DNA of 64,000 nt from Staphylococcus phage VB_SavM_JYL01: sequence record MH159197.1. The stretch is one strand, 5' to 3'. Below, piece by piece: positions 10,946 through 59,458 of the stretch (positions are counted from its first letter, which is position 1; every line of letters begins with the position of its first letter). The position numbers were made by a program, and so were the translations under genes. Below the pieces are notes generated by a model. The model ran no database searches and was not told the DNA's origin. It was given only the letters and a program-made list of their open reading frames with translations.

Positions 10946-10954
10946 TTTGGAATT

Positions 10955-11004: not shown

Positions 11005-11152
11005 AATGAAAGGAAGATGACATATCGCAAAGAATAAAACATTAACGATATATAATAGTGATAGATATTTTAATATACACACAAAAGATAAAGATAAAAT
11101 TAATGAGGCTATTAAAGTCACACACGGTAATGAAGAAGAAATTGAAAAGAAT

Positions 11153-11749: not shown

Positions 11750-11758
11750 GGTGATTAT

Positions 11759-12064
11759 ATGAGTACAGCAAATAGAAGAGATATAGCAAGGAAGATATCA
11801 GAGAACACAGGTTATTATATACAAGATGTAGAAGAGATACTAAGTGCAGAGACAGATGCTATTTCTGACTTACTAGAAGAAGGGTATACTAAAGTAAAGA
11901 ATCATAAATTTATGCAAATAGAAGTTATTGAAAGAAAAGGTAAAAAAGCTTGGGATGGGCTGAATAAAGAATATTTCCATTTACCTAATAGAAAAGCTAT
12001 AAAATTTAAACCACTTAAAGAATTAGAAGAGGTTATTGATAGACTTAATGAAGAAGAGAAATAA
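11759..12064 (+). CDS. HU/IHF-like DNA-binding protein
   Basis: ~100 aa; pattern RRDIARKISENTG...DVEEIL...KFKP consistent with the HU/IHF fold. Confidence 0.5.
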   Translation: MSTANRRDIARKISENTGYYIQDVEEILSAETDAISDLLEEGYTKVKNHKFMQIEVIERKGKKAWDGLNKEYFHLPNRKAIKFKPLKELEEVIDRLNEEEK

Positions 12065-12080
12065 TTCTCTTCTTTTTTTA
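12053..12080 (+). terminator. intrinsic terminator
   Basis: gaagagaa-ataa-ttctcttc followed by ttttttta. Confidence 0.6.
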
Positions 12081-12109
12081 TTGACAAGATTTAAAATATA
12101 TGGTATAGT
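12081..12109 (+). promoter_or_regulatory. promoter TTGACA-17-TATAGT upstream of the DNA polymerase gene
   Basis: Consensus -35, 17-nt spacer, TG-extended -10. Confidence 0.65.
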
Positions 12110-12139
12110 ATTATTAAGTTAAAAAAGGAGAGGAATTAA

Positions 12140-15100
12140 ATGAAAGTATTAATCTTATTTGACCACATTAGAGAAGAACATTTTTCTGTAAGTAAAGATG
12201 GGAGTGTGAAATCTAATGTATTAAATACACCTAATGGAAAAACACTTAAGAAATTACTTGAGAAGTGTTCTAACTTAAAGAGAGATAAAACAAACAGAGA
12301 CTATGATATTGATTTTCTCTATAACGCAGTACCTACACCTATTAGAAATGATTATGGTAAAATTATTAAATACCAAGATGTTAAACAAGCAGAAGTAAAA
12401 CCATATTATGAAAGAATGAATAACATTATTATTGATAACTCCTATGATATGATAATTCCTGTTGGTAAACTAGGTGTTAAATACTTATTAAATGTTACAG
12501 CTATAGGTAAAGTAAGAGGAGTACCAAGTAAAGTAACAATTGAAAATGAAATATCTTCTCATGATGTATGGGTACTACCTACGTATAGTATTGAATATAC
12601 GAATGTAAATAAAAATAGTGAACGTCATGTTGTATCAGATTTACAAACAGTAGGAAAATTTGTAGAACAAGGTGAAGAAGCATTTAAACCTAAAGAAGTA
12701 TCTTACGAATTAGTAGATAACATTGAAAGAGTAAGGGAAATATTTAATAAGGAAGTAAAGAATGATAATTATGATGGTGTAGATATCACCGCATGGGACT
12801 TAGAGACTAACTCATTAAAGCCTGATAAGGAAGGAAGTAAACCTTTAGTATTATCACTATCATGGAGAAATGGTCAAGGTGTGACTATACCTTTATACAA
12901 ATCGGACTTTAATTGGGAAAATGGTCAAGAAGATATTGATGAAGTACTAGAATTACTTAAGAATTGGTTAGCTAGTAAAGAAGATATTAAGGTGGCACAT
13001 AATGGTAAATATGATATTAAATTTTTAATGAGTACTGAGAACTTTAAAGATTTTGAGAACATTCAAGATACTAAAGTAGGTTGGTATTTAGCTGTCACAC
13101 AAGAAGTTAAAGAATCTTTGAGATTATCTGACTTAGCTTACGAGGTAACAGATGTCGGAGGTTATGATAAACCACTAGAAGATTTTAAATTATGGTTTGT
13201 TACTAAGTTATTAAGATTTTTCTCTGATAAAATTAAAGAAATACAGAAAGAAAATAAAAAAATTGCTAAGAAAGAGTATGATGTTAAAGCTCCTGAATAC
13301 AAAGAGTGGTTAGAGACTAAATTAAATGAAACAATAGTAGAATTAGATGATACTGAGAAGAAATTTAGAGTTAGTGAATTAGAGAAAAAATACATTCAGT
13401 TAGGTCTTTCACCTGAAATTGTAAACATGAATTTAGTTATGAACAACGATGAATTTATTAGTATTGCAGAGCAATCACCTGAATATATGGGATTATCTGA
13501 TTACGCTAAATCTTACACACTGAATACTGCAATTGATTTAATTAACAAGTATAGAGATGTAAAAGATGTAATTAATGATATTGATGGAGGTAACTTTAAC
13601 TATGATTGGTTCCCTATTGAGTTAATGCACCCGTACGCATCAGGAGACACTGATGTATGTAGAAGAATTCATTGTGATGTTGTTAAGAAACTTAAAGAGC
13701 AAGATAGACCTAAGTCAATGCATTTATTAGAAGTTAATTACCCAAGACTTACTAAATCATTAGCTAGAATTGAATCAAATGGTTTATACTGTGATTTAGA
13801 TTACATGAAAGAAAATGATGAGTCATACGAATCTGAGATGGCTAAGAACCACGCTACTATGAGAGAACATTGGGCTGTTAAAGAATTTGAAGAGTATCAA
13901 TATAACCTTTACCAAATGGCGTTAGAAGAGCATGAGAAAAAGCCAAAAGATAGAGACAAAGAGATTCATCAGTATAGAGATAAGTTTAAAGATGGTAAAT
14001 GGATGTTTTCTCCTAGCTCAGGAGACCATAAAGGTAGAGTAATTTATGATATTTTAGGAATTCAGTTACCTTATGATAAAGAGTATGTTAAAGAAAAACC
14101 ATTTAACGCTAATGTTAAAGAAGCAGACCTTACTTGGCAGGATTATAAAACAGATAAGAAAGCTATTGGTTATGCATTAGATAACTTAGAATTAAAAGAT
14201 GATGTTAAAGAACTTCTTGAATTACTTAAATATCATGCTAGTATGCAGACAAAACGTAACTCATTTACTAAGAAATTACCTAATATGATTAATAAACAAA
14301 AACGAACATTACATGGTTCTTTTTCTGAGACAGGTACAGAGACATCAAGATTAAGTAGTAGTAATCCTAACTTACAAAACTTACCTGCTCATACATCAGA
14401 TGTAAACAAGTTTGATTATAAACATCCAATTAAACGTTCATTTGTTTCTAGATTTGAAAATGGAGTACTACTAGGAGCCGACTATAGTGCCCTAGAGATG
14501 CGTATTATTGGATTATTTACTAAAGACCCTGATATGCTACAATCATTCTTAAATGGTGAGGATATTCATAAGGCTACGGCAAGTATTGTTTATAATAAAC
14601 CAGTAGAAGAAGTAACTAAAGAAGAGAGACAAGCAACTAAAGCAGTTAACTTTGGGCTAGCCTTTGGAGAATCACCATTCTCATTTGCAGGTAAAAATAA
14701 TATGGAAGTAAGTGAAGCAGAAGAAATATTTGAAAAGTACTTCCAAACAAAACCTAGTGTAAAAACTTCTATTGACAATGTACATGAATTTGTGCAACAA
14801 TATGGTTATGTTGATACAATGCACGGTCATAGAAGATTTATACGTTCAGCACAATCAACAGATAAAAAGATAAAAAATGAAGGTCTAAGACAATCATTTA
14901 ATACTATTATCCAGGGTTCAGGTAGTTTCCTAACAAATATGTCTTTAACTTACTTAGATGATTTTATTCAGTCTCGTAACTTGAAATCAAAAGTTATTGC
15001 TACAGTACACGATAGTATCTTAATTGATTGCCCTCCTGAAGAGGCTAAGATTATGGCTAAAGTGACAATTCATATTATGGAGAATTTACCGTTTGATTTC

Positions 15101-17586: not shown

Positions 17587-18843
17587 ATGGCAAGAGCAAA
17601 AAAAGGTAAAGAAGTAGATTTAACAGATTTAAATACAATTGATTTAGGTAAAGAATTAGGATTAACATTATTATCAGATACAAATAGAGCAGATATTAAG
17701 AATGTTATACCTACAATGGTACCTCAGTATGACTATATTTTAGGTGGAGGTATACCGTTAGGTAGATTAACAGAGGTTTATGGTTTAACTGGTAGTGGTA
17801 AATCAACATTTGCAGTTCATTTGTCTAGGATTGCAACACAATTAGGTGTTATTACCATTTGGATTGATATTGAAGGAACAGCAGACAATAATCGTATGGA
17901 ACAACTTGGAGTAGATGTTTCAAAATTATTCTCTATTCAATCAGGAGAAGGTAGACTTAAAAATACAGTAGAATTATCTGTAGAGGCTGTAGGTAAAGAA
18001 TTAGAGTACTGGATTGACACATTTAATGAAAAGATACCTGGAGTACCTATTGTGTTTATTTGGGACTCACTAGGAGCTACACGAACTCAGAAAGAGATTG
18101 ACGGCGGTATTGATGAGAAACAAATGGGTCTTAAAGCATCAGCTACTCAAAAAGTAATTAATGCAGTAACACCTAAATTAAATGATACAAATACAGGGTT
18201 AATTGTTATTAATCAAGCACGTGACGATATGAATGCAGGTATGTATGGTGACCCTATTAAGTCTACAGGTGGTAGAGCATTTGAACATAGTGCTAGTTTA
18301 CGTATTAAGGTTCATAAAGCATCACAATTAAAACAAAAAAGTGAATTAACTGGTAAAGATGAATATCATGGTCATATCATGCGTATTGAAACTAAGAAAT
18401 CTAAATTATCGAGACCGGGACAAAAAGCAGAAGCAGACTTACTATCTGATTATATGGTAGGTAAAGAAGATGACCCTATATTATTAAATGGTATTGACTT
18501 AGAACATACTGTATATAAAGAAGCAGTTGAAAGAGGTTTAATTACTAAAGGTGCATGGAGAAACTATGTTACATTGAATGGTGAAGAGATTAAACTTAGA
18601 GATGCTGAATGGGTTCCTGTATTAAAAGATAATAGAGAGTTATATTTAGAATTATTCAGTAGAGTATATGGAGAGCATTTCCCTAACGGTTACTCACCAT
18701 TGCTTAATAATAAAGTAATTGTAACTCAACTAGAAGAGTATCAAGCTCTTGAAAATTACTATAAAGAATGGGCTACAGATAATAAACAAAAGGAACAAGA
18801 GGAAGAACTAAAAGGAGAATCTCAAGAAAAGGATTCTGAATAA
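17587..18843 (+). CDS. RecA/UvsX-family recombinase
   Basis: Walker A GLTGSGKST, Walker B-like IVFIWDSLGA, RecA-fold loop-region length. Confidence 0.8.
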   Translation: MARAKKGKEVDLTDLNTIDLGKELGLTLLSDTNRADIKNVIPTMVPQYDYILGGGIPLGRLTEVYGLTGSGKSTFAVHLSRIATQLGVITIWIDIEGTADNNRMEQLGVDVSKLFSIQSGEGRLKNTVELSVEAVGKELEYWIDTFNEKIPGVPIVFIWDSLGATRTQKEIDGGIDEKQMGLKASATQKVINAVTPKLNDTNTGLIVINQARDDMNAGMYGDPIKSTGGRAFEHSASLRIKVHKASQLKQKSELTGKDEYHGHIMRIETKKSKLSRPGQKAEADLLSDYMVGKEDDPILLNGIDLEHTVYKEAVERGLITKGAWRNYVTLNGEEIKLRDAEWVPVLKDNRELYLELFSRVYGEHFPNGYSPLLNNKVIVTQLEEYQALENYYKEWATDNKQKEQEEELKGESQEKDSE

Positions 18844-48380: not shown

Positions 48381-48918
48381 GACTAATAGGAGTATGTTGA
48401 CTAATAAGGAAGATATATAGGAGAGGAGTTAATCAAGTAAAACCAATAAAATCAATTAAAACCAAGTAAAGTAACTAAACAATACCTAGAGCCTGGGAAA
48501 ACTTTTACCTCTCCCACTCAGCCTATTACTTACTACCGACTTCCCTAACTATGTATTCTATAGTTATAATATTCATTTATTATACAATACTTAAACTATA
48601 GTATTGTAACCTTAATCTATACTGAAGCGGTATTAATCTATTGTTATTATATAATAATCTTATATAATGGTGGTATAATCTAGGTTATTACATTAGAATC
48701 ATTCTAATCTAGAATTTTAATCTTTAGACCCTAGGAAAAGTGGTACTAAAATATAGAACCCTATAGGTATGGGATTCTTATTTTTAAAATTACTAAAAAG
48801 TATTAGGTTTTCCCTAGGGTAAAGTTTTAATGTACCTAAAATCGTAAGTAGCTCCTTATCATTTAGGTCTGTTTAATTGAGAATATTAGAAGATATCCGC
48901 TTCAATTACAATTAAAGG

Positions 48919-48947
48919 TTGACAACTATGAAGCGGTATGTTATACT
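48919..48947 (+). promoter_or_regulatory. promoter TTGACA-17-TATACT driving a short non-coding transcript; spacer contains GAAGCGG
   Basis: ttgaca 48919-48924, tatact 48942-48947. Confidence 0.55.
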
Positions 48948-48953
48948 TAGTAT

Positions 48954-49053
48954 TGTAGGGGTGGTTCCCTACAGACCTAGACTATGGTCGTGATTTTGGT
49001 TTGCATATTAGTGTCATTCATAACCCCTACTGGAATAGGGGTTATTTTTATTT
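48954..49053 (+). ncRNA. candidate ~100-nt small RNA (promoter to intrinsic terminator, no ORF)
   Basis: Consensus promoter at 48919; 5' hairpin tgtaggg-gtggtt-ccctaca (48954-48973); terminator aacccct-actggaat-aggggtt + attttttattt (49022-49053); no SD or start codon; next promoter begins at 49059. Confidence 0.4.
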
Positions 49054-49058
49054 AAGTA

Positions 49059-49087
49059 TTGACATACTCTAAGTAGTATGGTATGAT
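49059..49087 (+). promoter_or_regulatory. promoter TTGACA-17-TATGAT for the first paralog-A gene
   Basis: ttgaca 49059-49064; 17 nt; tatgat 49082-49087. Confidence 0.55.
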
Positions 49088-49110
49088 TAGTATATAAGGA
49101 GATGAATAAT

Positions 49111-49407
49111 ATGATTGATATATACTTAGGGGAAAACTATAATACTGATTACTTATCTACTATTATGAATATTATAAAGACTTCCGCTTCAAGAGAGTTA
49201 AGTTATGGGTTTAATAATAAAGAAGCGGATGTAAATATAGAGGATATGAAGTATGAAGGTGATGTTATGCATGTATATGGTACGATGTCTATGGATTATC
49301 CAGGCTGTATTATTATATGTATTACTAGTGAAGAGACTAAGGTTATATATGGTGGTAACTTTCTAACAGGTACAGGTCTTAGTCAAGAAGTTAGAGAAAA
49401 ATTCTAG
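49111..49407 (+). CDS. host-takeover-region small protein, paralog family A member
   Basis: Shares the I.I.L.E.Y...L..L..I......RELTYG pattern with 50057, 50384, 50674 and 50961; ATG 49111, 9 nt after aaggag. Confidence 0.6.
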   Translation: MIDIYLGENYNTDYLSTIMNIIKTSASRELSYGFNNKEADVNIEDMKYEGDVMHVYGTMSMDYPGCIIICITSEETKVIYGGNFLTGTGLSQEVREKF

Positions 49408-49418
49408 GGGGAGTTATT

Positions 49419-49589
49419 ATGATTATACCATTAATTATATTCATGATGACCTTCGGTACATTTGCATTCAGTTATGTTGCACATGATGCATACAAAGTAG
49501 ATGAAAAAGGTATCATGTATGCTATGGTAGTTGGTATTGTAGTTATAAATGGGATTGGTTTAGAAATGATAATTGTAGAATGTTTATAA
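49419..49589 (+). CDS. 56-aa membrane micro-protein, not in ORF track
   Basis: SD ggggga upstream of ATG 49419; stop 49587-49589. Confidence 0.45.
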   Translation: MIIPLIIFMMTFGTFAFSYVAHDAYKVDEKGIMYAMVVGIVVINGIGLEMIIVECL

Positions 49590-49602
49590 AGGAGGTAGTA
49601 AA

Positions 49603-49788
49603 ATGATAGGTCAAATTATACTATTAGCTATTGTTAGTATAGTTACAATAGGTTGTGTAGGATTATTTTTCTATGAGACGTTCAAGAGTATTAAGTATGA
49701 TGCTAATGATAAAATCTTTATGATTACTGGGAGTATATTAATGTTAGTTATTATCGTTAGTGGTGCATTAGCTATACTTGGCATTTAG
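49603..49788 (+). CDS. small membrane protein (2 TM)
   Basis: ORF track; SD aaggaggtag. Confidence 0.5.
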   Translation: MIGQIILLAIVSIVTIGCVGLFFYETFKSIKYDANDKIFMITGSILMLVIIVSGALAILGI

Positions 49789-49895
49789 AGCTCATTTAAG
49801 AAGCGGTTAAGTAGTTCATGATAAATTGGTCTAGAAATATATGACCGCTTCTCTATGGAAGGCTGAGAGGGTTTAGAATTGAAAGGAGAGATATA

Positions 49896-50042
49896 ATGGC
49901 TATATTTTTTAGTATTTTATTATTGATTAACATATACTTAATATACTATGAATGTACTTCAGTTACGTTTGATTGGTGTGCACTGCTTATTTACGTATGC
50001 TCATTATGCTCTTGTATTTATTTAATAGTATATTTTGTATAA
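49896..50042 (+). CDS. 48-aa membrane micro-protein, not in ORF track
   Basis: SD gaaaggagag upstream of ATG 49896; stop 50040-50042. Confidence 0.4.
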   Translation: MAIFFSILLLINIYLIYYECTSVTFDWCALLIYVCSLCSCIYLIVYFV

Positions 50043-50056
50043 AAGGAGGAGATATA

Positions 50057-50371
50057 ATGCAAGCAACTATATACTGTGCTAATAGGTATAGTAAAAATAC
50101 ATTAAAGAGTCTTTTAGAAAAATTAGAAGCGGAGAATAGAAACTTAACATATAGTACTGACATATCAGATATGGAGGAAGTGGATGTTATTGTACAACAC
50201 ACTGACTTATCTTTTGCAGAGTTAATGGATTCTTGTGATAGAGTAAGTAAAGGGTCTGACCGCTTCCAAGTATTTGTAGGTAATCACGCAGGGTATTATA
50301 TAAACGGTGATTTATATATTAACGAAGTAGGTAAGTTTATTGTACCTAGGAAAACGAATATGATGATGTAA
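50057..50371 (+). CDS. paralog family A-like protein
   Basis: ATG 50057 after aaaaggagga; the ORF-track N-extension (49973) is unlikely. Confidence 0.55.
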   Translation: MQATIYCANRYSKNTLKSLLEKLEAENRNLTYSTDISDMEEVDVIVQHTDLSFAELMDSCDRVSKGSDRFQVFVGNHAGYYINGDLYINEVGKFIVPRKTNMMM

Positions 50372-50383
50372 GGAGGAAATATA

Positions 50384-50674
50384 ATGATTCATATATTTGT
50401 AAAAGAGGATTATAATAAAGAAACATTAAGGAGTTTACTTGAATATATTAATGATACTGTAGGTAGGGAATTAACTTATGGTATTAATACAGACTATGAT
50501 AAGGATGTAGTGATTGAAACCGATGACCCTATAGATGAGGAGAATACGATTGATTTATCAAATCTTCCTCACTTTAAAGATGACTTATGTATTCTTATAG
50601 AAGAATTATACTGTAAGGCATTTGTTAATGGGGAACCTATTATTATACGTAAGTATGTAGAGGGGATGTTATAA
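50384..50674 (+). CDS. paralog family A member
   Basis: MIHIFVKEDYNKETLRSLLEYINDTVGRELTYG... Confidence 0.6.
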   Translation: MIHIFVKEDYNKETLRSLLEYINDTVGRELTYGINTDYDKDVVIETDDPIDEENTIDLSNLPHFKDDLCILIEELYCKAFVNGEPIIIRKYVEGML

Positions 50675-50961
50675 TGATTATAATATTTTTAACTGAAAAA
50701 TATGATGCCAAGGCTTTAAAGAAAGTATTAGAACATATTGATAATTGTAGTAGCAGAGGTCTTAGCTATTTAATGGGAAAAGGAGAAGCGGATGTATGTA
50801 TAGAGAAGAATGTATTCAGAGAAAGAGATGATGTAAGGATTAACTCAAACATTATTGATGAAGGTAAACTTTGTATACTCATAAATAAAAATGGTTTAGA
50901 ATGTAGTTACTATAGAGGTGTATCATGTAATATTGGTGCCTTTGTAAAGGAGAGATTATAA
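50674..50961 (+). CDS. paralog family A member
   Basis: MIIIFLTEKYDAKALKKVLEHIDNCSSRGLSY...; ATGA overlap. Confidence 0.6.
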   Translation: MIIIFLTEKYDAKALKKVLEHIDNCSSRGLSYLMGKGEADVCIEKNVFRERDDVRINSNIIDEGKLCILINKNGLECSYYRGVSCNIGAFVKERL

Positions 50962-51254
50962 TGATAGAAATATATCTCAGTGAAAACTATGATAGGGATT
51001 TACTCAAAGCAGAATTAAAATGGATTAAAGAGACCGCTTCAAGAGAACTAACTTATGATGTTAATAGAAGCCCAGGATTAGATGTACATATTAGTCCTTT
51101 TAGATATACCAAGGATGAGGTTGAAGAAATGAGCTTACATCCTCAGTTTGAAGATGATGTATGTGTATTTATAGCTGAAACATGGATACATGAGTATCGT
51201 AATGGTAAATCAATAGGTGTAGATAGTATGGAAGAATATGTAAAGGAGATGTAA
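50961..51254 (+). CDS. paralog family A member
   Basis: MIEIYLSENYDRDLLKAELKWIKETASRELTY...; ATGA overlap. Confidence 0.6.
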   Translation: MIEIYLSENYDRDLLKAELKWIKETASRELTYDVNRSPGLDVHISPFRYTKDEVEEMSLHPQFEDDVCVFIAETWIHEYRNGKSIGVDSMEEYVKEM

Positions 51255-51257
51255 TTA

Positions 51258-51506
51258 ATGGTAGAAACTTATTATACAGTATATCATAAGAATAGTATGA
51301 AAACTATTAAGGATTACTTAAGTAGAAGTGATTTAATTGACTTCTTATATAAGACTTGGCATAAGGATATAAGTAATATATACCCAACAGATTATACTAC
51401 GTATGAAACAAAATTCTGTATAGACATAGATGTAGTTAGATTAATTGAAGCGGTTAATGAAGAAGGTGTATTACTTATTAATGAAGGTAATATTGTAGAG
51501 TGGTAG
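51258..51506 (+). CDS. paralog family B member
   Basis: TYxVYHK...KxxxxxL.....L...M pattern shared with 51519 and 51870. Confidence 0.55.
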   Translation: MVETYYTVYHKNSMKTIKDYLSRSDLIDFLYKTWHKDISNIYPTDYTTYETKFCIDIDVVRLIEAVNEEGVLLINEGNIVEW

Positions 51507-51518
51507 GAGGAGATAAAT

Positions 51519-51758
51519 ATGAGTCAGTTTTTCACGTATACAGTGTATCATACAGAAACAGCTAAAGTAGTAGCTAAGAATTTGTTTGATGCATCATTGG
51601 TGCACCTTATTAACAAGATGATAGAGAAAGATATAGTTAAGGATATTAATTTAGAATATTACATGAATACACGTGGTGTAGTTATAGATATGAGTAGACT
51701 ACTGGATGATATAGAATCACAGGGTGTATTTCTATTCAAACGTAAGCTACATGGATAA
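51519..51758 (+). CDS. paralog family B member
   Basis: MSQFFTYTVYHTETAKVVAKNLFDASLVHLINKMIEKDIVKDI... Confidence 0.6.
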   Translation: MSQFFTYTVYHTETAKVVAKNLFDASLVHLINKMIEKDIVKDINLEYYMNTRGVVIDMSRLLDDIESQGVFLFKRKLHG

Positions 51759-51869
51759 TAGGTTAGACCCTAAAAAGTTTGAGATACAATAGGATGCTTA
51801 GGATAATAGGATAAAAATAACTTAGGATGCTTAGGATGAAATACGATACGATAGGGAGGTTAAGTTAAG

Positions 51870-52109
51870 ATGCAAGAGTTAATAACTTATATAATTTACC
51901 ATAAAGAATCAGGTAAAGTAGTAGCACAGGATTTAAGTGAATTAGAAACTATTGAACTTATATACAAAATGATAGAAGAGGGATTAGTAAAAGATATAGA
52001 ATTATCTAACTACCGTCTTTTTAGTGGGAATATAGATATACTTAACTTATTAGTAGACATACGTAAACAAGGTATATTTGATTTTGAACATACTTGGCAC
52101 ACAAGATAA
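51870..52109 (+). CDS. paralog family B member
   Basis: MQELITYIIYHKESGKVVAQDLSELETIELIYKMIEEGLVKDI... Confidence 0.6.
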   Translation: MQELITYIIYHKESGKVVAQDLSELETIELIYKMIEEGLVKDIELSNYRLFSGNIDILNLLVDIRKQGIFDFEHTWHTR

Positions 52110-52120
52110 GGAGGGATAGG

Positions 52121-52465
52121 ATGATAGTTATATATTCAGATGAGTCTAGGGATTACTTAAGAGATGAGTTCTTACCTTGGCTTAATGATAGAGATAGATA
52201 TTTAAAATATTATAAGAATGAGTTACCTGAAGATATAGACTCTTCTTATGTTGTATCAGTTGTATACTGTAGGGATATGGAAGGTCTTATGAATAGGAAA
52301 GATATTCTTATTGGTAATAGTTATAGAGAGCCTGTAGCTGTATTAGGTGTTCCTGAATTTTTTGGTAACTATTCTAATTATTACTATTATAAAGGAGAGC
52401 ATATAAGTAAGCATGACCTAGGAGAGATAATTAGGTTAAAGGCTTGGCAACGTAATTTTGACTAA
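52121..52465 (+). CDS. hypothetical protein
   Basis: ATG 52121 after aaggaggg; the ORF-track start was a TTG. Confidence 0.5.
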   Translation: MIVIYSDESRDYLRDEFLPWLNDRDRYLKYYKNELPEDIDSSYVVSVVYCRDMEGLMNRKDILIGNSYREPVAVLGVPEFFGNYSNYYYYKGEHISKHDLGEIIRLKAWQRNFD

Positions 52466-52543
52466 GTAGCTCTCTCTAATTTCACTAAGTAGCTCCCTAG
52501 GAATTGCCTAAGTAGCTCGGTGTGATTTTACCCTAAGTAGCTC
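52462..52543 (+). repeat. four direct copies of CTAAGTAGCTC at 23-25 bp spacing
   Basis: Copies at 52462, 52485, 52508, 52533; a degenerate copy TAAGTAGCTCC at 48845. Confidence 0.8.
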
Positions 52544-52949
52544 CCTCTGTTTTCTATTAGTTTATTTTAACCGCTTCACGTGTCTATATATAGACAATCG
52601 GAATAATAGCAGACCGCAAAAAGAAATACACTAGGATATTATTCCCAGTGTATTGTATAATTTTTTTATATAATATTTGTAGAAGCGGTTGGGGTTTGTC
52701 CCTTGCCTTACTACACTTAATATATTACAGTATAGTTATTCAGAAGTCAATACTTTTGAGTAACTTTTTTTTAAATTCTTTTTTCTTCTATATAATAGTA
52801 GTTTTTAGCCCTAAAAAAAGTTTTTTAAAAGAATTTACATTTTCTTATTGACTTATTAATCATATGATAGTAATATAAAGGTACAGCAAGAGAACAGCAA
52901 CAAGGTATTAGAATTATATAAAAAAATTATTTAATTGGAGATGATTTAA

Positions 52950-53258
52950 ATGGATGTAAAAGAAATTGCAGACACTATAATGGAGTTGTGGCAAATGGAC
53001 GGATACAGATGTACAGAACCGCCATTATATGAAAGCACATTAAACCACACACGCACATACACGGCTTTAATTGTAAGCATTAAAGGTAATTACGACACTG
53101 TTCAAATGTTCCGTAAAACGCCTATAATGAGCATGAGAGGGCAAAGCCAACCGGCTAGCATGTTAGTAAATGTAATTGATGACGTGATTATAATCGTATA
53201 TGAAAATACGGTTTACGGGGTACAGAATAAAGAAATAAAATTTATTGAAGAAATTTAA
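52950..53258 (+). CDS. hypothetical protein
   Basis: ORF track; leader GGAGATGATTTAAATG. Confidence 0.55.
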   Translation: MDVKEIADTIMELWQMDGYRCTEPPLYESTLNHTRTYTALIVSIKGNYDTVQMFRKTPIMSMRGQSQPASMLVNVIDDVIIIVYENTVYGVQNKEIKFIEEI

Positions 53259-53357
53259 AAATAGGGGTTGCAATACCCCTTAAGATGTAGTAATATAATA
53301 GATGTAAGGGATAGCAACACACCTTAAAAAACTTTTTAAAAAAGTTAAAGAAAAGTG

Positions 53358-53386
53358 TTGACACCTTACAAGATACATGTTAATAT
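53358..53386 (+). promoter_or_regulatory. promoter TTGACA-17-TAATAT (TGT-extended)
   Basis: Same -10 context tgttaatatt as the promoters at 54671 and 56591. Confidence 0.6.
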
Positions 53387-53463
53387 TAGTATAGAAGTTA
53401 AGACAAGCCACATAGCAAATAACGAAATTAAATAAAAAAATTATAGAATAGGATTTGATTATT

Positions 53464-53751
53464 ATGACAAACAAAAATTACTTATACGAAGAAACTCACA
53501 CAGTACAAGGGCAAGATATTACGGCTTTCAGAATTCCAAATGACACAAACGGCAACCCACGTTATGTAGTGCATTTCATGGATTTAGACATTAAACTAGC
53601 AGACTATGACAACATCAATAAGCTATACGGATTTAAAAAATATACTGCTAAATGGTTTGGCGGTGGTGTAGTATTCCAAAGCTATAATATTGAAGATACA
53701 TTAAATTACGCACTATCTAATGTTAAAGAAATAGAAGCGGTTAAGAATTAA
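53464..53751 (+). CDS. hypothetical protein
   Basis: Promoter 53358-53386; leader GGATTTGATTATTATG; hairpin 53734-53760 at the stop. Confidence 0.55.
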   Translation: MTNKNYLYEETHTVQGQDITAFRIPNDTNGNPRYVVHFMDLDIKLADYDNINKLYGFKKYTAKWFGGGVVFQSYNIEDTLNYALSNVKEIEAVKN

Positions 53752-53800
53752 AACCGCTTCTGAATTAAATAAAAAAATTATATAAAAAGGGTATGATATT

Positions 53801-53992
53801 ATGAAATTTAAAATAGAAAAAAATAACAGTGATATAAAAACTTTATGGAATTTAGCTAAAAATGGATATATGAGTTATCAAACTGTACACAATATATTTA
53901 AAAATGAATCAGATGAATTTATTATATTTAACAGTAAACAAACTTATAATAAATTTATGGAATTAAGATATAATAGAAGTGCAATTCAATAG
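53801..53992 (+). CDS. hypothetical protein
   Basis: ORF track; terminator 54012-54045 follows. Confidence 0.5.
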   Translation: MKFKIEKNNSDIKTLWNLAKNGYMSYQTVHNIFKNESDEFIIFNSKQTYNKFMELRYNRSAIQ

Positions 53993-54011
53993 TATAAAAA
54001 AGTTATATAAT

Positions 54012-54045
54012 TCCCTAGGATTAAATTCCTAGGGATTTTTATTTG
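54012..54045 (+). terminator. intrinsic terminator
   Basis: tccctagga-ttaaat-tcctaggga + ttttt. Confidence 0.6.
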
Positions 54046-54099
54046 TTTTAATTTATATAAAAAAATTATTTAATAAATAAATTAGTGTAAAATTGACTG

Positions 54100-54129
54100 T
54101 TGACAAGAATATATTTTTTATGGTATAAT
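54100..54129 (+). promoter_or_regulatory. promoter TTGACA-(17/18)-TATAAT heading a non-coding cassette
   Basis: ttgaca 54100-54105; ggtataatg. Confidence 0.55.
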
Positions 54130-54508
54130 GAAGTGAAGACCTTTTTTAGTATAAAAAAATTATTATATAAAAAAATTATATAAAAAAGTTTAGTTCCGGT
54201 CTTTCTCCCCACCTTGTCATATTTATAGTGGAAGGGTTAGGCGGGTTACCACTGTTTTACTTTCTATATATAGTATACTATGAATAATGGTAATTGTCAA
54301 CACCTTTCAGAAACTTTTTTTACTTTATTTTATTATTATATAAAAAAATTATACATATTTTAGGGCTCCACTTCCATTATATAATAATTCGGTCTTAATG
54401 TCAATACTTTTATTCAAAAAAGTTTTTTAAATTAGTTTCAACAAATCTATTGACTTATGTTTATTTCTATAGTAATATATAGTTATACCAACAAGGGAGG
54501 CAATACAA

Positions 54509-54667
54509 ATGCTAAAATTTAAATGGAAAAACAAAACAATCAAATCAACTCAAAAAACGGATAACATTCTTTTACTTCTTATAGGTGGTTTAGTTGCAAC
54601 AGTCACACCTAAACTTGTAAACTGGTTTTTACTACTACAAGATAATATAAATATTTTTTTAAGATAA
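54509..54667 (+). CDS. 52-aa membrane micro-protein, not in ORF track
   Basis: aagggagg 8 nt upstream of ATG 54509; promoter ttgact...taatat upstream. Confidence 0.45.
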   Translation: MLKFKWKNKTIKSTQKTDNILLLLIGGLVATVTPKLVNWFLLLQDNINIFLR

Positions 54668-54670
54668 CTA

Positions 54671-54699
54671 TTGACAACTTAGAAACAACGTGTTAATAT
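54671..54699 (+). promoter_or_regulatory. promoter TTGACA-17-TAATAT; transcript begins with a GGAAGCGG-ttga-CCGCTTCC hairpin
   Basis: ttgaca 54671-54676; taatat 54694-54699; hairpin 54716-54735. Confidence 0.6.
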
Positions 54700-54765
54700 T
54701 AAGATACAAGGTAAGGGAAGCGGTTGACCGCTTCCGACCTAAATAAAAAAAGTTTAAAAAAACTA

Positions 54766-54794
54766 TTGACAGTCACTTGAAACCATGATATTAT
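54766..54794 (+). promoter_or_regulatory. second tandem promoter TTGACA-17-TATTAT
   Basis: ttgaca 54766-54771. Confidence 0.5.
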
Positions 54795-54833
54795 TAAGAT
54801 AACAAAAAACAAACAGAAAAGGAATTGATTATA

Positions 54834-55157
54834 ATGAAATTTATCAAAACTATCGAAAACTTATTAGAAAAAGCAGAAAACAAAGGGCAAGCAATTTTAA
54901 ACGGTCGTTACTTTGATGGGTATAGCAAAGGTGAGCTTGAGGAAAAATATGCAATTGAAATTGATGGCAACAAATTGATTATGCGTCACTGGGGTACACA
55001 AACAATTGAGATTGATTTAAGCATAAATGAGATTGTTTCATATTACGGTGAAAGCAATTCAGACCGTGACAGTTTAAACACACTTGTATATTGCTTAGGA
55101 ATTGCGCCAAACTTTAGATACTTACCAAGCAAAAACTTATTCATTTACGAAAATTAA
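54834..55157 (+). CDS. hypothetical protein
   Basis: Tandem promoters 54671-54699 and 54766-54794; leader GGAATTGATTATAATG. Confidence 0.55.
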   Translation: MKFIKTIENLLEKAENKGQAILNGRYFDGYSKGELEEKYAIEIDGNKLIMRHWGTQTIEIDLSINEIVSYYGESNSDRDSLNTLVYCLGIAPNFRYLPSKNLFIYEN

Positions 55158-55256
55158 TTAAATAAAGGGCTTGACTTCCAAGCCCTACCATGTTATTATT
55201 AAATTGTAAGGTAATCAAGCACAACGACAAAATAAACTGAAAAGGGATTGATGAAA

Positions 55257-55763
55257 ATGACAAATAATAAGGATTTTAATAAAAATTTCTTAAGACTACT
55301 AAAAGTTAAAAATGTAAATGACAAAAGGGTGCAAGGTTTCATAAACAAGCATGACATTAAACTTAAAGACAAAGAAGAAAGCTCACAAGGATATGTTAAC
55401 GTATTATATAAGGGTTATGACTTTGTAATATCAAAAGACTATGCAGGTCAAACGGCGTTATATGTTAACATGCGTAATTTAGGGGTTGACTACAAACATT
55501 TTAAACATTTAGATTTTAATAATATTGTTCAAGCGTTAGACAGAAAAAATAATAATCGTGTTGAATGTAAGGAAACAAAAACACAACAATATAAAGAATT
55601 TAAACACCGTCAAAAGACAGAAAAAGAAATGTTAACATACTATGAAAAGGATATCGAAAAGCTAAAAGAAGAACTGGAACGAACACAAAAAATCTACAAT
55701 GATAAAATAAAGAAAATAGAAAATTACGATAAAAAAATATCTAGACTAAAAAAATCAAAATAA
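55257..55763 (+). CDS. hypothetical Lys-rich coiled-coil protein
   Basis: Leader GGGATTGATGAAAATG; start could also be 55251. Confidence 0.5.
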   Translation: MTNNKDFNKNFLRLLKVKNVNDKRVQGFINKHDIKLKDKEESSQGYVNVLYKGYDFVISKDYAGQTALYVNMRNLGVDYKHFKHLDFNNIVQALDRKNNNRVECKETKTQQYKEFKHRQKTEKEMLTYYEKDIEKLKEELERTQKIYNDKIKKIENYDKKISRLKKSK

Positions 55764-55832
55764 GGCTTGACACTTTCAAGCCCTCATGATATACTTAGTA
55801 TAACAAATCAAAAAGAAAAGGAATTGATGAAA

Positions 55833-56213
55833 ATGTTCAAATTACAAAATAAAGTGGAAATTATCGTACCTAAGGAAGATAACAACGGCGTTGAGATTGC
55901 AGACAAACGTATTAAAGAATATGTAAATAGCATCACAATGGAAGCGGGTGGTTGTACTATTACAGAAATCAAAGGGCAATGGTACTCAGAAGATGAAAAA
56001 CGTATAATGGAAGATAACAACTTAAATCTTGAGTGGTACTACATGCAAGACAGTGCCAAATTCATGACAGTTGAATTAAAAGGCATTGTAAGACGTTTAA
56101 TTGAAGTTTACGGACAAGAAGCAATAAGCATTAAAGTTAACGGCACATTGTACATTGTAGACCAATCAGACATTGAAGAATTACACACAACATTATTAAA
56201 TATCATGAAATAA
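55833..56213 (+). CDS. hypothetical protein
   Basis: Leader GGAATTGATGAAAATG; start could also be 55827; terminator 56226-56266 follows. Confidence 0.5.
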   Translation: MFKLQNKVEIIVPKEDNNGVEIADKRIKEYVNSITMEAGGCTITEIKGQWYSEDEKRIMEDNNLNLEWYYMQDSAKFMTVELKGIVRRLIEVYGQEAISIKVNGTLYIVDQSDIEELHTTLLNIMK

Positions 56214-56225
56214 AAAATTTATATA

Positions 56226-56266
56226 AACCGCTTCGGATTAAATTCTTGAAGTGGTTATTTTCTTTT
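56226..56266 (+). terminator. intrinsic terminator (stem built on a CCGCTTC element)
   Basis: aaccgcttc-(13 nt)-gaagtggtt + attttcttttaaat. Confidence 0.55.
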
Positions 56267-56590
56267 AAATTAGTGCTTGACAAATGTACTAAAAAATGAG
56301 ATAATGAAGTGAACGCATTTTTTAGTATAAAAATAATATTATATAAAAAAATTATATAAATGAATTTATTTCAGGTCTTTCCCGTAACCCCTCTTGGGCT
56401 ACCCTGGTATCTCTACAATTATTATTATACTATAGGTCATGAAGATTGTCAATAACTTTCTTCAAAATAATTTATTTAAAAAAGTTTCATAAATCTATTG
56501 ACTTACTATTAATTATGGTGTAATATATAGATATAAGGTTAAGGAAGCGGAACACCTAAAAAAGAAATTAAAAAAACTTTTAAAAAGGTG

Positions 56591-56619
56591 TTGACAAACT
56601 TCAAACCACATGTTAATAT
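56591..56619 (+). promoter_or_regulatory. promoter TTGACA-17-TAATAT
   Basis: ttgaca 56591-56596; taatat 56614-56619. Confidence 0.6.
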
Positions 56620-56655
56620 TAAGATAACAAATAAAACAAAAAGGAATTGATAATT

Positions 56656-56877
56656 ATGAACAGATTAGAAATAATAAAAGACACGGCAATGGAATACATC
56701 ATTATGATGGATAACGGAGTTATGGACGGACAATTGACACAAGAAGAATACAACGAAGCGGTTAGCTTTGAAAAGGTTTACGATTACACTTTATCAGAAG
56801 CAAATCAAGAATGTAAATTCTTAGGCGGTAAAATTTTAACTTTCCTAGTACATGAAGCAATTGAAGAATACGCATAA
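56656..56877 (+). CDS. hypothetical protein
   Basis: Promoter 56591-56619; leader GGAATTGATAATTATG. Confidence 0.55.
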   Translation: MNRLEIIKDTAMEYIIMMDNGVMDGQLTQEEYNEAVSFEKVYDYTLSEANQECKFLGGKILTFLVHEAIEEYA

Positions 56878-56958
56878 AAAAACTTAATCAAAGGGGTTGA
56901 CATTCAACCCCTTACCATGTTAATATTAATATATACCAAATGAGAGGAATTGATAATT

Positions 56959-57096
56959 ATGAGATACGAAATCGTAACATTAGTTAATGGAGAATTATTC
57001 ATGTTTGCAACATTTAAGAAAGCAGAGGCAGAAAATAAATATCAAGAATGGTGTGACTTGTACGGTCAAGAAAATGTAAGCATGGAAAAAAATTAA
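56959..57096 (+). CDS. 45-aa protein, not in ORF track
   Basis: Promoter gttgacattcaacccctt...taatat; leader GGAATTGATAATTATG; stop 57094-57096. Confidence 0.45.
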   Translation: MRYEIVTLVNGELFMFATFKKAEAENKYQEWCDLYGQENVSMEKN

Positions 57097-57166
57097 AATA
57101 AGGGGTTGACACTTAACCCCTTAGATGTTATTATTAATATATACTAAAGAAAAGGAAATGATAAAA

Positions 57167-57403
57167 ATGAAATTATTAAACCAAGAAAATGAAATCGTAA
57201 AAGAAATGGTAACTTTTAGAGACGTAAAACAAGCCCTAATTTGGGAATACATCGACCACATAGATAATAACATCCTAAACAATGAAATTCATGACACAGA
57301 AGCGGTTGTGGTTACTTCTGAGACTCTACAATCAATCAAATTTGCAGACACTATGGAAGACCTGCAGGAATACATTGCAGATATCAATTGGAAATTAGTT
57401 TAA
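57167..57403 (+). CDS. hypothetical protein
   Basis: Promoter gttgacacttaacccctt...tattat; leader GGAAATGATAAAAATG. Confidence 0.5.
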   Translation: MKLLNQENEIVKEMVTFRDVKQALIWEYIDHIDNNILNNEIHDTEAVVVTSETLQSIKFADTMEDLQEYIADINWKLV

Positions 57404-57497
57404 AAAAAGTTTTAAATAACTGTTGACACCTTAGCAAATAGATGGTAATATAAGAGTATAAAGAAAAACAAAAAAAAACGAAAAGGATTTGATTATA

Positions 57498-57842
57498 ATG
57501 ACAAACTTACTAAACACTATTGAGATGGATTTTGAATACTATGGAGTACAATTTGAAAATGGATGGAAACACAATGCCTACACTGTAGAGCTAACACATA
57601 ATGGAGTTACCGAAGAATTTGACTGGAAACAAGGAATAGGAATTCACGAAGAGCCTGAACTAGAAAGCATCTTAGAAAGCTTAATGCTAGATATTCATTA
57701 CTATGAAGAAGATATTTATTCAATGTATGAGGACGAAGAACAGGCAGAAAAAATAATTGAGAAGTTAGAAGAACAAACTAAAAAGGTAAATAAACTATTT
57801 ACAGATGAGGAACAAGCAGACCTAGTTGAATACTTTGAATAG
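57498..57842 (+). CDS. hypothetical acidic protein
   Basis: Promoter ttgacacc...ggtaatat; leader GGATTTGATTATAATG; palindrome hairpin 57867-57890 after the stop. Confidence 0.55.
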   Translation: MTNLLNTIEMDFEYYGVQFENGWKHNAYTVELTHNGVTEEFDWKQGIGIHEEPELESILESLMLDIHYYEEDIYSMYEDEEQAEKIIEKLEEQTKKVNKLFTDEEQADLVEYFE

Positions 57843-57916
57843 TATCAGGAAACACACAGAGACCCACAGAAGCGGATTAATCCGCTTCTAATATAATTAA
57901 TCAGGAGATGTTAAAG

Positions 57917-58081
57917 ATGACAATTAAAGAGGTTATAAGCCAATTAGAATTAGTAGAAAATAAAGAACTTGAATTGTACGTATGCGACAAGGAAAATAAT
58001 AACATTTCAATTAATGATATTATTTTGTTCGATAGTGAAGCAGAGCACACAGAAAACAACCCACTAGGGATTAATTATTAG
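57917..58081 (+). CDS. 54-aa protein, not in ORF track
   Basis: Leader GGAGATGTTAAAGATG; stop TAG 58079-58081. Confidence 0.4.
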   Translation: MTIKEVISQLELVENKELELYVCDKENNNISINDIILFDSEAEHTENNPLGINY

Positions 58082-58093
58082 GAGATGTTGAAC

Positions 58094-58267
58094 ATGAACA
58101 CAAGAAGGGTAAACAAAGCGTTAAACGAAGCAGTTAGATTATTAGACAAGCAAATAGCAGACACACAGAAAACAATGCAGGAGTTAAATAAACAACTAGA
58201 ACAACAGATAAAAGCTAAGCAGGAGCTAATGACATTAGTTGATGCTATGACTGGTGATGATGAGTAA
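58094..58267 (+). CDS. small coiled-coil protein
   Basis: Leader GGAGATGTTGAACATG; ORF-track frame from 58085. Confidence 0.45.
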   Translation: MNTRRVNKALNEAVRLLDKQIADTQKTMQELNKQLEQQIKAKQELMTLVDAMTGDDE

Positions 58268-58536
58268 TGAACGTTAGAGAGGTTCATGATGTCGTTAAGA
58301 GTGCAAAGAGCAAACTCCTGCAGGAGCAGAATAATATTAATAATGTAATGATATATGAATACATCACAGAAGAGCTTCACAGACGCACACAGAGAAGCGG
58401 AACAATACAGATGAACAATAACACCGCTTCATATAGTAATGGCTCATATGGTAGCTTAGAAGAGCTTAGAGAAGCTTATGACCTCTCTTCTCTATCTACT
58501 GATGAGATTAAAGAACTACTTGAAACATTTGTTTAA
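58267..58536 (+). CDS. hypothetical protein
   Basis: ORF track; ATGA overlap. Confidence 0.5.
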   Translation: MNVREVHDVVKSAKSKLLQEQNNINNVMIYEYITEELHRRTQRSGTIQMNNNTASYSNGSYGSLEELREAYDLSSLSTDEIKELLETFV

Positions 58537-58620
58537 ATTATTTTATCAAAACGCTTTACAATCTTTTAGTTTGTATGATATAATGAACTTAACAAATTAA
58601 AAGAAAAGGAAATGATGAAC

Positions 58621-58842
58621 ATGAGAGACTTACAAGAGAGAAAAAGAGAATTAAAAACATTACTATTTAACTTAGCCATAGAGAAGAATAGAGCAACGGA
58701 TGAGCAGTTAAGAGAAGTATTAGAACAATCACATCAAGAAGTGATGTATCAATTAAATAAAGTTAGAAAAGAAATTGAAATTTTAGTTGAAGAAAAAGAA
58801 AGAGAATTTTGGAATGATTTCGATTTTAATGGATTAGATTAA
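58621..58842 (+). CDS. hypothetical coiled-coil protein
   Basis: Leader GGAAATGATGAACATG; terminator 58842-58870 follows. Confidence 0.5.
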   Translation: MRDLQERKRELKTLLFNLAIEKNRATDEQLREVLEQSHQEVMYQLNKVRKEIEILVEEKEREFWNDFDFNGLD

Positions 58843-58870
58843 GAGGGAATAAAATCCCTCTTTTATTTTT
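58842..58870 (+). terminator. intrinsic terminator ending the rightward small-gene block
   Basis: agaggga-ataaaa-tccctct + tttattttt. Confidence 0.65.
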
Positions 58871-59004
58871 ATCCTATTATATAATTTTTTTATATTATAC
58901 GGGGGCAGGGGTAAAATGCCACTCAATGGGGGTGGGTCTATATACCCCTACGGTCTACCCAGGTACTTATTTTTTGGGGAAAATTATGAAAATAAATATT
59001 TAAA

Positions 59005-59126
59005 AGTCAACACATAAAATATAGAAAGTAAGTCAACATCCCTTATAATAAGTCAACATTATAACCTTACTTGGTAAGTCAACAATTTATAGTACAAATA
59101 TAAAGCCTCTAAATATAAAGTCAACA
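59005..59126 (+). repeat. five direct copies of AGTCAACA (iteron-like) in the convergent intergenic region
   Basis: Copies at 59005, 59031, 59051, 59077, 59119. Confidence 0.8.
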
Positions 59127-59129
59127 TAT

Positions 59130-59160
59130 ATAAAATAAGAAGAGAGGTATATCCTCTCCT
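59130..59160 (-). terminator. minus-strand intrinsic terminator ending the leftward operon
   Basis: gagagg-tatat-cctctc hairpin; on the minus strand it is followed by tcttatttta. Confidence 0.55.
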
Positions 59161-59167
59161 CTCTTAA

Positions 59168-59458
59168 CTAGATAAGTACGATTCTATTATTTAGTTCCTG
59201 TTCTATTCTATTTAAATGCTCCCAAACCTCAATCCAGTTTACTCTTGAATCATCATAATAAAGGTGGAAATCTTGAGGGTTTTCTAAATATGCTTCTAGT
59301 TCATCATAGTATAGAACATCAAAAGCTGTGTCATCAAGACCTATTTGAATCTTTAGTATATCTCTATATCCTAATTGTTTATTACCGCAATAAGCTGTAT
59401 CTTCTAACCGCTTCTCTAGTTTATTAAATAGTGTTTGTATACCTTGTAGTTCATTCAT
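59168..59458 (-). CDS. hypothetical protein (first gene of the leftward-transcribed arm)
   Basis: ORF track; minus-strand terminator at 59130-59160 just past its stop. Confidence 0.55.
   Translation of the reverse strand: MNELQGIQTLFNKLEKRLEDTAYCGNKQLGYRDILKIQIGLDDTAFDVLYYDELEAYLENPQDFHLYYDDSRVNWIEVWEHLNRIEQELNNRIVLI

Follow-up and report, generated by a model that had tools for sequence, protein, structure and literature searches.

The genome of Staphylococcus phage VB_SavM_JYL01 (sequence record MH159197.1) raises the question of why one heptanucleotide, GAAGCGG, is crowded into its long terminal repeat (LTR), the 10.5-kb segment that in related phages is repeated at both ends of the DNA. 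The stretch analysed (64,000 nucleotides, hereafter the window) is from a Kayvirus (Herelleviridae, Twortvirinae) and is here 97% identical to phages HSA30 and OPT-SX11. An exact search of both strands finds 28 matches to GAAGCGG/CCGCTTC (16 on the plus strand and 12 on the minus strand), all of them within 48624-59414, the remainder of the window being free of the word; this reproduces the count and positions given in an original prediction made from the letters alone. That prediction had taken the word to be the Chi site of the AddAB (RexAB) helicase-nuclease of Staphylococcus aureus; two papers citing Halpern et al. 2007 (bioRxiv 10.1101/2021.07.08.451572 and PMC8022716) agree that S. aureus Chi is 5'-GAAGCGG-3'. 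It is well supported that the word is the host Chi and is under selection in the LTR, and it is probable that the 27 heptamers located there are functional Chi sites of the host AddAB, kept by selection throughout the repeat.

The limits of the LTR were placed by homology to the annotated direct terminal repeats of phages Stab20 (1-10814), SAP23, ESa1 and Fi200W; the repeat of these relatives starts at the equivalent of window position 48496 and stops approximately 118 bp past treU. The segment carries the host-takeover "tre" genes, and transcripts of LTR genes have been reported to be present within 2 min of infection. In the window the right arm is followed by a single LTR copy and then by leftward early genes, the layout of a collapsed or circularised assembly. 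The LTR, the 27 Chi heptamers that it contains and the one heptamer outside it are as follows.

48496-58959, plus strand: LTR, 10,464 bp, from BLAST to the Stab20 LTR and the SAP23 repeat_region and from the Fi200W annotation
48624-48630, plus: Chi heptamer, intergenic, 128 bp in from the left end of the LTR; kept in Stab20, SAP23 and Fi200W
48897-48903, minus: Chi heptamer, intergenic; the first copy that would face AddAB from the left end, 401 bp in
48930-48936, plus: Chi heptamer, intergenic, in the spacer of a predicted promoter (48919-48947)
49184-49190, minus: Chi heptamer in gene 49102-49407, TCC-GCT-TCA
49222-49228, plus: Chi heptamer in gene 49102-49407, GAA-GCG-GAT, with the rare alanine codon GCG
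49800-49806, plus: Chi heptamer, intergenic; 5' arm of a long hairpin (49799-49852)
49845-49851, minus: Chi heptamer, intergenic; 3' arm of the hairpin 49799-49852
50126-50132, plus: Chi heptamer in gene 50057-50371, GAA-GCG-GAG
50260-50266, minus: Chi heptamer in gene 50057-50371, GAC-CGC-TTC
50785-50791, plus: Chi heptamer in gene 50674-50961, GAA-GCG-GAT
51034-51040, minus: Chi heptamer in gene 50961-51254, ACC-GCT-TCA
51447-51453, plus: Chi heptamer in gene 51258-51506, GAA-GCG-GTT
52571-52577, minus: Chi heptamer, intergenic
52682-52688, plus: Chi heptamer, intergenic
53734-53740, plus: Chi heptamer at the end of gene 53455-53751, GAA-GCG-GTT; 5' arm of a hairpin (53732-53762)
53754-53760, minus: Chi heptamer, intergenic; 3' arm of the hairpin 53732-53762 (-14.6 kcal/mol, no U-tract)
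54717-54723, plus: Chi heptamer, intergenic; 5' arm of the palindrome GGAAGCGGttgaCCGCTTCC
54728-54734, minus: Chi heptamer, intergenic; 3' arm of the palindrome GGAAGCGGttgaCCGCTTCC
55941-55947, plus: Chi heptamer in gene 55767-56213, GAA-GCG-GGT
56228-56234, minus: Chi heptamer, intergenic
56544-56550, plus: Chi heptamer, intergenic
56755-56761, plus: Chi heptamer in gene 56647-56877, GAA-GCG-GTT
57299-57305, plus: Chi heptamer in gene 57125-57403, GAA-GCG-GTT
57869-57875, plus: Chi heptamer, intergenic; 5' arm of the palindrome AGAAGCGGATtaATCCGCTTCT
57882-57888, minus: Chi heptamer, intergenic; 3' arm of the palindrome AGAAGCGGATtaATCCGCTTCT
58394-58400, plus: Chi heptamer in gene 58267-58536, AGA-AGC-GGA; the outermost copy that would face AddAB from the right end, 559 bp in
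58424-58430, minus: Chi heptamer in gene 58267-58536, ACC-GCT-TCA
59408-59414, minus: heptamer outside the LTR, in leftward gene 59168-59458; present in HSA30, absent from Stab20 and Fi200W

The last of these lies about 450 bp beyond the LTR and belongs to the first of the leftward genes; Stab20 has TCTCTTC at this position, the 1.6 kb directly past the Fi200W LTR contains no equivalent, and the copy is probably not part of the selected array. The expectation that Chi density follows the terminal region is thus borne out by the 27 copies inside the LTR but not by this one.

The density of the word in the LTR is 2.58/kb, approximately 200-fold higher than expected by chance (0.012/kb) and approximately 22-fold higher than in the S. 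aureus chromosome, for which the literature gives 335 copies in 2.82 Mb (0.12/kb), the host count with which it had been proposed that the phage be compared. Dinucleotide-preserving shuffles of the window (n = 100) contained 0.78 copies on average and 3 at most, equivalent to about 0.13 per 10.8 kb. When 3911 heptamers were compared for enrichment in the LTR relative to the remainder of the window, GAAGCGG came first (27 versus 1, binomial p = 1e-20). The G+C content is level across the region, at about 29-30%, and is the same in the LTR as in the rest of the phage, so composition does not account for the number of copies.

The enrichment is a property of the exact word. The LTR has 27 occurrences each of GAAGCG, AAGCGG and AGCGG, every one within the full heptamer, and the 8-mers are split over several flanking bases, the sole context preference being for A or T as the next base (27 of 28 copies). 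The 21 one-mismatch variants of GAAGCGG occur 6 times in total (6.05 expected), and a degenerate protein-binding motif is ruled out by this background level. A dispersed repeat, an iteron or paralogous duplication is likewise ruled out, by gaps between copies that range from 11 to 1213 bp and by 15-bp flanks that are unrelated (9.2 of 30 positions identical on average, 17 of 30 at most); a short common context, derived from paralogous tre genes, is limited to two or three pairs (e.g. 49184/51034 and 49222/50785).

Selection on the DNA word rather than on a peptide, as originally proposed, is evident from the distribution of copies among genes and spacers: 14 are intergenic (4.1 per kb of intergenic LTR), and the 13 LTR copies within genes (1.8/kb; 14 of the 28 are genic if copy 59408 is counted) occur in several phases and in both coding orientations. 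Nine copies in frame as GAA-GCG-G account for nine of the 12 GCG alanine codons of the analysed genes, in which this codon is otherwise rare. Comparison with Stab20 (93% identity) indicates purifying selection: 22 of the 23 aligned LTR sites are intact, the remaining one having no partner in Stab20, and none of 154 motif positions is substituted, whereas 94 of 1357 positions (6.9%) differ in the 30-bp flanks (motif versus flank, P = 1.6e-5). SAP23 has nine additional copies of GAAGCGG in LTR cassettes that are not homologous to the window. Enrichment of the exact word only, together with the absence of substitutions relative to Stab20, is consistent at the sequence level with the dependence on an exact word that would be expected of Chi. 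The variant GAAGTGG is found three times in the LTR (0.2 expected), and its copy at 56248-56254, which aligns to an intact GAAGCGG of Stab20, is a Chi site recently lost or gained through a single C/T change.

The copies are also arranged nonrandomly. Neighbouring LTR copies are in opposite orientation in 21 of 26 cases (permutation P = 0.0005), and the LTRs of Stab20 (1-10814) and SAP23 (1997-13677) have the same alternation. All seven of the gaps of 45 bp or less (11-45 bp) separate inverted copies, with 2.85 expected, and four of these close inverted pairs fold as stable hairpins (-14 to -21 kcal/mol) that have no U-tracts and are followed by A-rich sequence. The palindromes that had been pointed out at 53734-53760, 54716-54735 and 57867-57890, and the codon phases listed with them, were all found. 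Such a palindrome may be read as the cheapest way to fit both polarities into spare intergenic DNA, at times doubling as a hairpin. Two other roles for the copies were considered and rejected: as terminator stems, because GAAGCGG is absent from all 15 sites in the LTR that were predicted as terminator-like (their stems are AGGGGTT, CCCTAGGA or AGGGCTTG); and as operator sites, because the copies keep no fixed distance from predicted promoters, their offsets ranging from -576 to +459 bp.

The pattern extends to other staphylococcal phages. HSA30 has 31 copies in its complete genome of 140 kb, 29 of them in the LTR block, one the orthologue of copy 59408 and one elsewhere; its first 97 kb contain none, and nowhere outside its LTR does the density of GAAGCGG compare with that inside. 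The unique (non-LTR) region is at chance density, neither enriched nor depleted. The curated LTR (1-8402) of Fi200W (Kayvirus G1 species) has 20 copies, with none in the next 1.6 kb. Phage Twort of S. hyicus (Twortvirus) has 15 copies in a 9.2-kb LTR and none in the next 20.8 kb, and the word ranks first among heptamers there also, in an LTR whose genes are mostly unrelated to those of the window. Romulus (Silviavirus) has eight copies, all in the LTR-equivalent block, with none outside it (52 kb sampled), and SEP1 of S. epidermidis (Sepunavirus) has 16 on the LTR side and two in 15 kb of unique DNA. In SEP1, 14 of the 16 copies form inverted pairs, several of which are annotated as terminators, as is one inverted pair of Romulus. 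The LTR-confined array is therefore convergent across four genera of staphylococcal phages whose LTR genes are for the most part unrelated.

The temperate S. aureus phage phi11 has five copies of GAAGCGG in 43.6 kb, a density like that of its host. All five are on the same strand of this pac-type siphovirus, between 21511 and 41619, downstream of the terminase genes; 1.85 would be expected, and three of 100 shuffles reach five. They may reflect a mild bias of Chi toward one orientation along the direction of packaging.

If the word is read by a host enzyme, relatives that infect other hosts should carry the Chi of those hosts, and the phages of Bacillus subtilis carry a word that contains that of their host. 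The Chi words as given in the literature are GAAGCGG for S. aureus and AGCGG for B. subtilis. In phage SPO1 the hexamer most enriched in the terminal redundancy (1-13185, 13.2 kb) is GAGCGG, i.e. G plus the B. subtilis Chi, with 24 copies (15 on the plus strand, 9 on the minus strand) and only the chance level of 12 in the remaining 117 kb; the figures for CampHawk (LTR 1-13772) are 26 in the terminal repeat versus one. In both phages only GAGCGG is enriched, and AGCGG that follows A, C or T is at background, which hints that the effective Chi context in B. subtilis may be one base longer than the published pentamer. Several sites differ between SPO1 and CampHawk while the total is similar, which looks like turnover at a maintained density. 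Grass, a B. subtilis phage of another subfamily with a 4.2-kb LTR (1-4208), has AGCGG 13 versus 31 times (2.6-fold) and GAGCGG six versus three times. The strands of the AGCGG copies in the Grass LTR, from left to right, are ----++++++++- (few alternations, P = 0.01); minus copies are at the left boundary and plus copies fill the right part, so that each physical end would meet active copies first.

In 30 kb of Listeria phage A511 there is no GAAGCGG and no strongly enriched G+C-rich LTR word, AGCGG being twofold enriched, which is not significant; because the Chi word of Listeria is not known, this result speaks only against a phage-specific GAAGCGG site throughout the family. The absence of the staphylococcal word from A511 is the opposite of what would undermine the prediction, namely the same enrichment in a phage of a host with a different Chi. 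The LTR of phage T5 contains two E. coli Chi sites in 10.2 kb, so long terminal repeats are not rich in Chi by default. A putative LTR block of Enterococcus phage phiEF24C (approximately 5700-11950 of the DNA examined, approximately 101.7-107.9 kb of the record), whose limits were inferred from gene orientation and a non-coding gap, has AGCGG 10 times versus five in the other 24 kb (P = 1.6e-4), with 10 of 10 on one strand, which makes AGCGG a candidate Chi-type word for E. faecalis.

From these computed properties (an exact match to the Chi word, restriction to the LTR, the presence of both orientations, purifying selection, convergence among genera and the parallel in Bacillus phages) we infer what AddAB and RecA would do at the ends of the genome and what would become of the DNA. 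AddAB recognizes Chi on the 3'-ended strand and sequesters that strand while unwinding goes on, an enzyme in which efficiency of recognition has been traded for selectivity. The linear virion DNA would have the same LTR directly repeated at both ends, and after injection AddAB would load at a free end and degrade inward. Given that Chi is read on the 3'-ended strand only, minus copies would serve the left end and plus copies the right end, and the argument that direct repeats at both ends require both Chi polarities is sound; both are present and alternating, with 11 copies active at the left end and 16 at the right. Since recognition of a single Chi is inefficient, many serial copies would be needed for sure recognition inside the LTR, and with 11 and 16 in series recognition within the repeat should be nearly certain. 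Past Chi the 3' strand would be spared and loaded with RecA, and loss of DNA would be limited to sequence that has a second copy at the other end. The recombinogenic LTR tail could then invade the other LTR, of the same or a sister genome, leading to end repair, circles or concatemers, and a shorter stretch of phage DNA would be turned by AddAB into substrates for CRISPR spacers. Such rescue of the ends would be usable before any phage protein exists. Selection for the word would stop at the LTR boundary because loss inside redundant DNA is harmless and loss beyond it destroys unique genes. Reprogramming of AddAB at the genome ends is the most parsimonious account of the function of the array, and a likely one, although some way from assured.

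Several observations weigh against this reading. Chi stops neither unwinding nor degradation of the 5' strand, and the first correctly oriented copies are 401 bp (left) and 559 bp (right) from the LTR limits, so that the outer 400-560 bp or so would still be lost; for both of these reasons RecA-mediated recombination between LTRs is probably part of the function. The "Chi shield" of the original prediction was therefore right as to the word, its confinement to the LTR and its polarity, but a pure shield is mechanistically incomplete because unwinding persists. The phage also encodes its own RecA-family recombinase and SbcCD-like nuclease, breaking the published rule that Chi-rich phages are without Rec functions; the genes concerned are:

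17587-18843: RecA-family protein (PF00154, E = 2e-32)
243-1268: SbcD/Mre11-like phosphoesterase
1645-3564: SbcC/Rad50-like ATPase

Between a quarter and half of the copies belong to inverted pairs or hairpins, and such structures could serve a separate function; the word of SPO1 is GAGCGG rather than every AGCGG, which a pentameric Chi does not predict; and the strategy is not universal among LTR phages, considering that A511 is without a comparable word and the T5 LTR has only two E. coli Chi sites. Finally, the window has one collapsed LTR copy, the terminal position of which is assigned by homology.

The alternative that survives best, although it is unlikely, is that GAAGCGG is the site of another DNA-binding protein of phage or host, such as a factor that shuts off early genes, an organiser of the nucleoid or of packaging, or a factor for stepwise injection of the LTR, and that its identity to Chi is coincidental. 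An exact, LTR-restricted word often present in inverted pairs, as are the sites of dimeric proteins, is compatible with such a protein, as is the fact that the word enriched in SPO1 is a hexamer and not the plain pentameric Chi; moreover, it is established that SPO1-type phages silence their early LTR promoters with DNA-binding proteins, and tf1, gp44, gp50 and gp51 are annotated in the records of such phages. Binding of this kind does not readily explain why no promoter offset between -576 and +459 bp is preferred, why half of the copies are genic, why the spacing of inverted pairs varies from 11 to 45 bp and more, or why there is no halo of near-match variants. It is also very unlikely that by chance the top word of 3911 would be the host Chi and the top hexamer of Bacillus phages would contain the Bacillus Chi, and the word follows the genus of the host, not the phylogeny of the phages, being absent from A511.

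It is quite improbable that the array serves mainly to starve CRISPR adaptation, dense terminal Chi limiting the capture of spacers to a few hundred bp of redundant DNA, with protection and recombination of the ends secondary. According to the literature, the hotspots of spacer acquisition in staphylococci begin at free DNA ends, require AddAB and have Chi sites as their limits, and the first correctly oriented copies are close enough to the LTR ends (401 and 559 bp) to fit that pattern. CRISPR-Cas systems are, however, generally known to be uncommon in S. aureus; the phages of B. subtilis have the same pattern; and one or two copies per end would nearly suffice were recognition efficient. Starvation of adaptation is in any case a consequence of AddAB reprogramming by Chi, not an alternative reader of the word.

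A very doubtful possibility is that GAAGCGG is a favoured G+C-rich stem of LTR hairpins, acting in termination or in RNA stability or processing, and that the lone copies are by-products. The strict inversion of the closest pairs (seven of seven, 2.85 expected), the four stable hairpins of -14 to -21 kcal/mol, and the inverted pairs of SEP1 (14 of 16 copies, several annotated as terminators) and Romulus favour it, but none of the 15 predicted LTR terminator-like sites uses the word, the Chi hairpins are without U-tracts, no hairpin outside the LTR uses the word, and at least 13 copies are solitary or genic, the latter using rare codons. Chi stems would be expected anyway if selection favoured paired Chi sites of both polarities in spare intergenic DNA. 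As for a chance or compositional artefact, or host-derived DNA bringing the Chi density of the host, GAA is a frequent codon and GAAGCGG is among the commoner host heptamers, but this explanation is already refuted by the shuffles (0 of 100 above three copies), by the equal G+C content of the LTR and the rest of the phage, by a density 22-fold that of the host, by the conservation of the sites under selection, and by phi11, which is merely host-like.

Reprogramming of AddAB by an array of host Chi sites has partial precedents. Chromosomal Chi of S. aureus is the identical 7-base word, required exactly and read on one strand, but its density is 0.12/kb and approximately 90% of copies are co-oriented with replication, whereas the phage copies, as putative Chi sites, are at 2.6/kb, alternate and are confined to a 10.5-kb repeat. 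Lambdoid phages such as LLS (E. coli) and MD8 (P. aeruginosa) have 20-32 Chi sites near one end and no Rec module (Zheng et al., Genome Res 2025, PMC12315714), and this enrichment of the host's own Chi near a genome end has been read as recruiting the host helicase-nuclease for recombination-dependent growth. These phages have cos ends, Chi in nearly a single orientation by the right end (20 versus 3 and 32 versus 0), RecBCD hosts and no recombinase of their own, whereas the present phage infects an AddAB host, has direct LTRs with Chi in both orientations, and itself encodes a RecA-family recombinase and an SbcCD-like nuclease. It shares with the class comprising LLS, MD8 and P1 a Chi density above those of chance and host, and copies that are clustered at the end (terminal position by homology) and correctly oriented, but it does not share their lack of a phage recombination module, three recombination genes being present in the window.

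Chi is over-represented in P1- and T5-like genera, phages that need concatemers (Bobay et al. 2013, PMC3784561), and P1 is reported to require host RecA and RecBCD for recombination of its terminal redundancy (PMC12315714). Terminal redundancy, recombination by the host between repeats to form circles or concatemers, and over-representation of Chi are thus common to these phages and the present one, but their enrichment is reported genome-wide and here it is an LTR-restricted array. Lambda Gam and its analogues likewise solve the problem of survival of linear phage ends in the face of a host end-processing nuclease, but as trans-acting proteins that block the enzyme, whereas here a cis-acting DNA signal is proposed to reprogramme the enzyme before gene expression. 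The terminal redundancy of SPO1, a host-takeover module, is homologous in architecture (a 13.2-kb direct repeat with early genes) and differs in having another word for another host, a hexamer that exceeds the published 5-base Chi by one base. No prior link of Chi to the terminal repeats of Kayvirus, Twort-like phages, SPO1 or Herelleviridae was found in a literature search that did not cover Lobocka et al. 2012, and no Chi features are annotated in the curated GenBank records of Fi200W and Twort. The claim of novelty thus stands for the terminal repeats of Kayvirus but not for terminally clustered phage Chi as such, already published for lambdoid phages and P1; an LTR-restricted, bipolar Chi array in phages with their own recombinase appears to be undescribed so far.

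Other features of the LTR and its vicinity were noted. Short tandem repeats (48431-48479; 10/19-bp units) are directly left of the LTR boundary, and the equivalent place in phage 812 is occupied by a 35-bp tandem repeat that varies (PMC6445280); a 23-bp unit is repeated 3.9 times at 52457-52548, in an intergenic region within the LTR. Two perfect consensus sigma-70 promoters (TTGACA-17-TATAAT) on the minus strand (56452-56424 and 54404-54376) face leftward among the rightward genes of the LTR and are possible sources of the small or antisense RNAs known from the phage K terminal repeat (PMC9241854). Further words enriched in the LTR are TTATATAA (19 versus 6), AAAAAAGTT (10 versus 1), AACCCCT (9 versus 0) and CCTAGGA (6 versus 0), which are extended -10 or upstream promoter elements and shared terminator stems of the early units.

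It is conceivable, though on the whole doubtful, that the LTRs of Firmicute-infecting Herelleviridae in general are self-rescuing ends, in which a bipolar array of host Chi makes AddAB recombine the repeats before any phage protein is made and limits spacer capture. If so, the top word of a terminal repeat would reveal the Chi of the host, with an extended GAGCGG predicted for B. subtilis and a word of the AGCGG type for E. faecalis, and would provide a cheap computational route to Chi words in Firmicutes for which none is known. The tendency of phages to enrich the Chi of their hosts would be widened from lambdoid phages and RecBCD hosts to AddAB hosts and to large virulent myoviruses that have recombinases, and a terminal redundancy of 8-13 kb would gain a justification in addition to gene dosage. 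Phage therapy against S. aureus relies mainly on kayviruses, and to our knowledge little is known of how the linear DNA of these phages persists through the opening minutes of an infection. A Chi array acting in cis would be a device for defence evasion and genome maintenance that has no need of gene expression, and would make the rexAB and recA status of the host a predictable determinant of phage efficacy.

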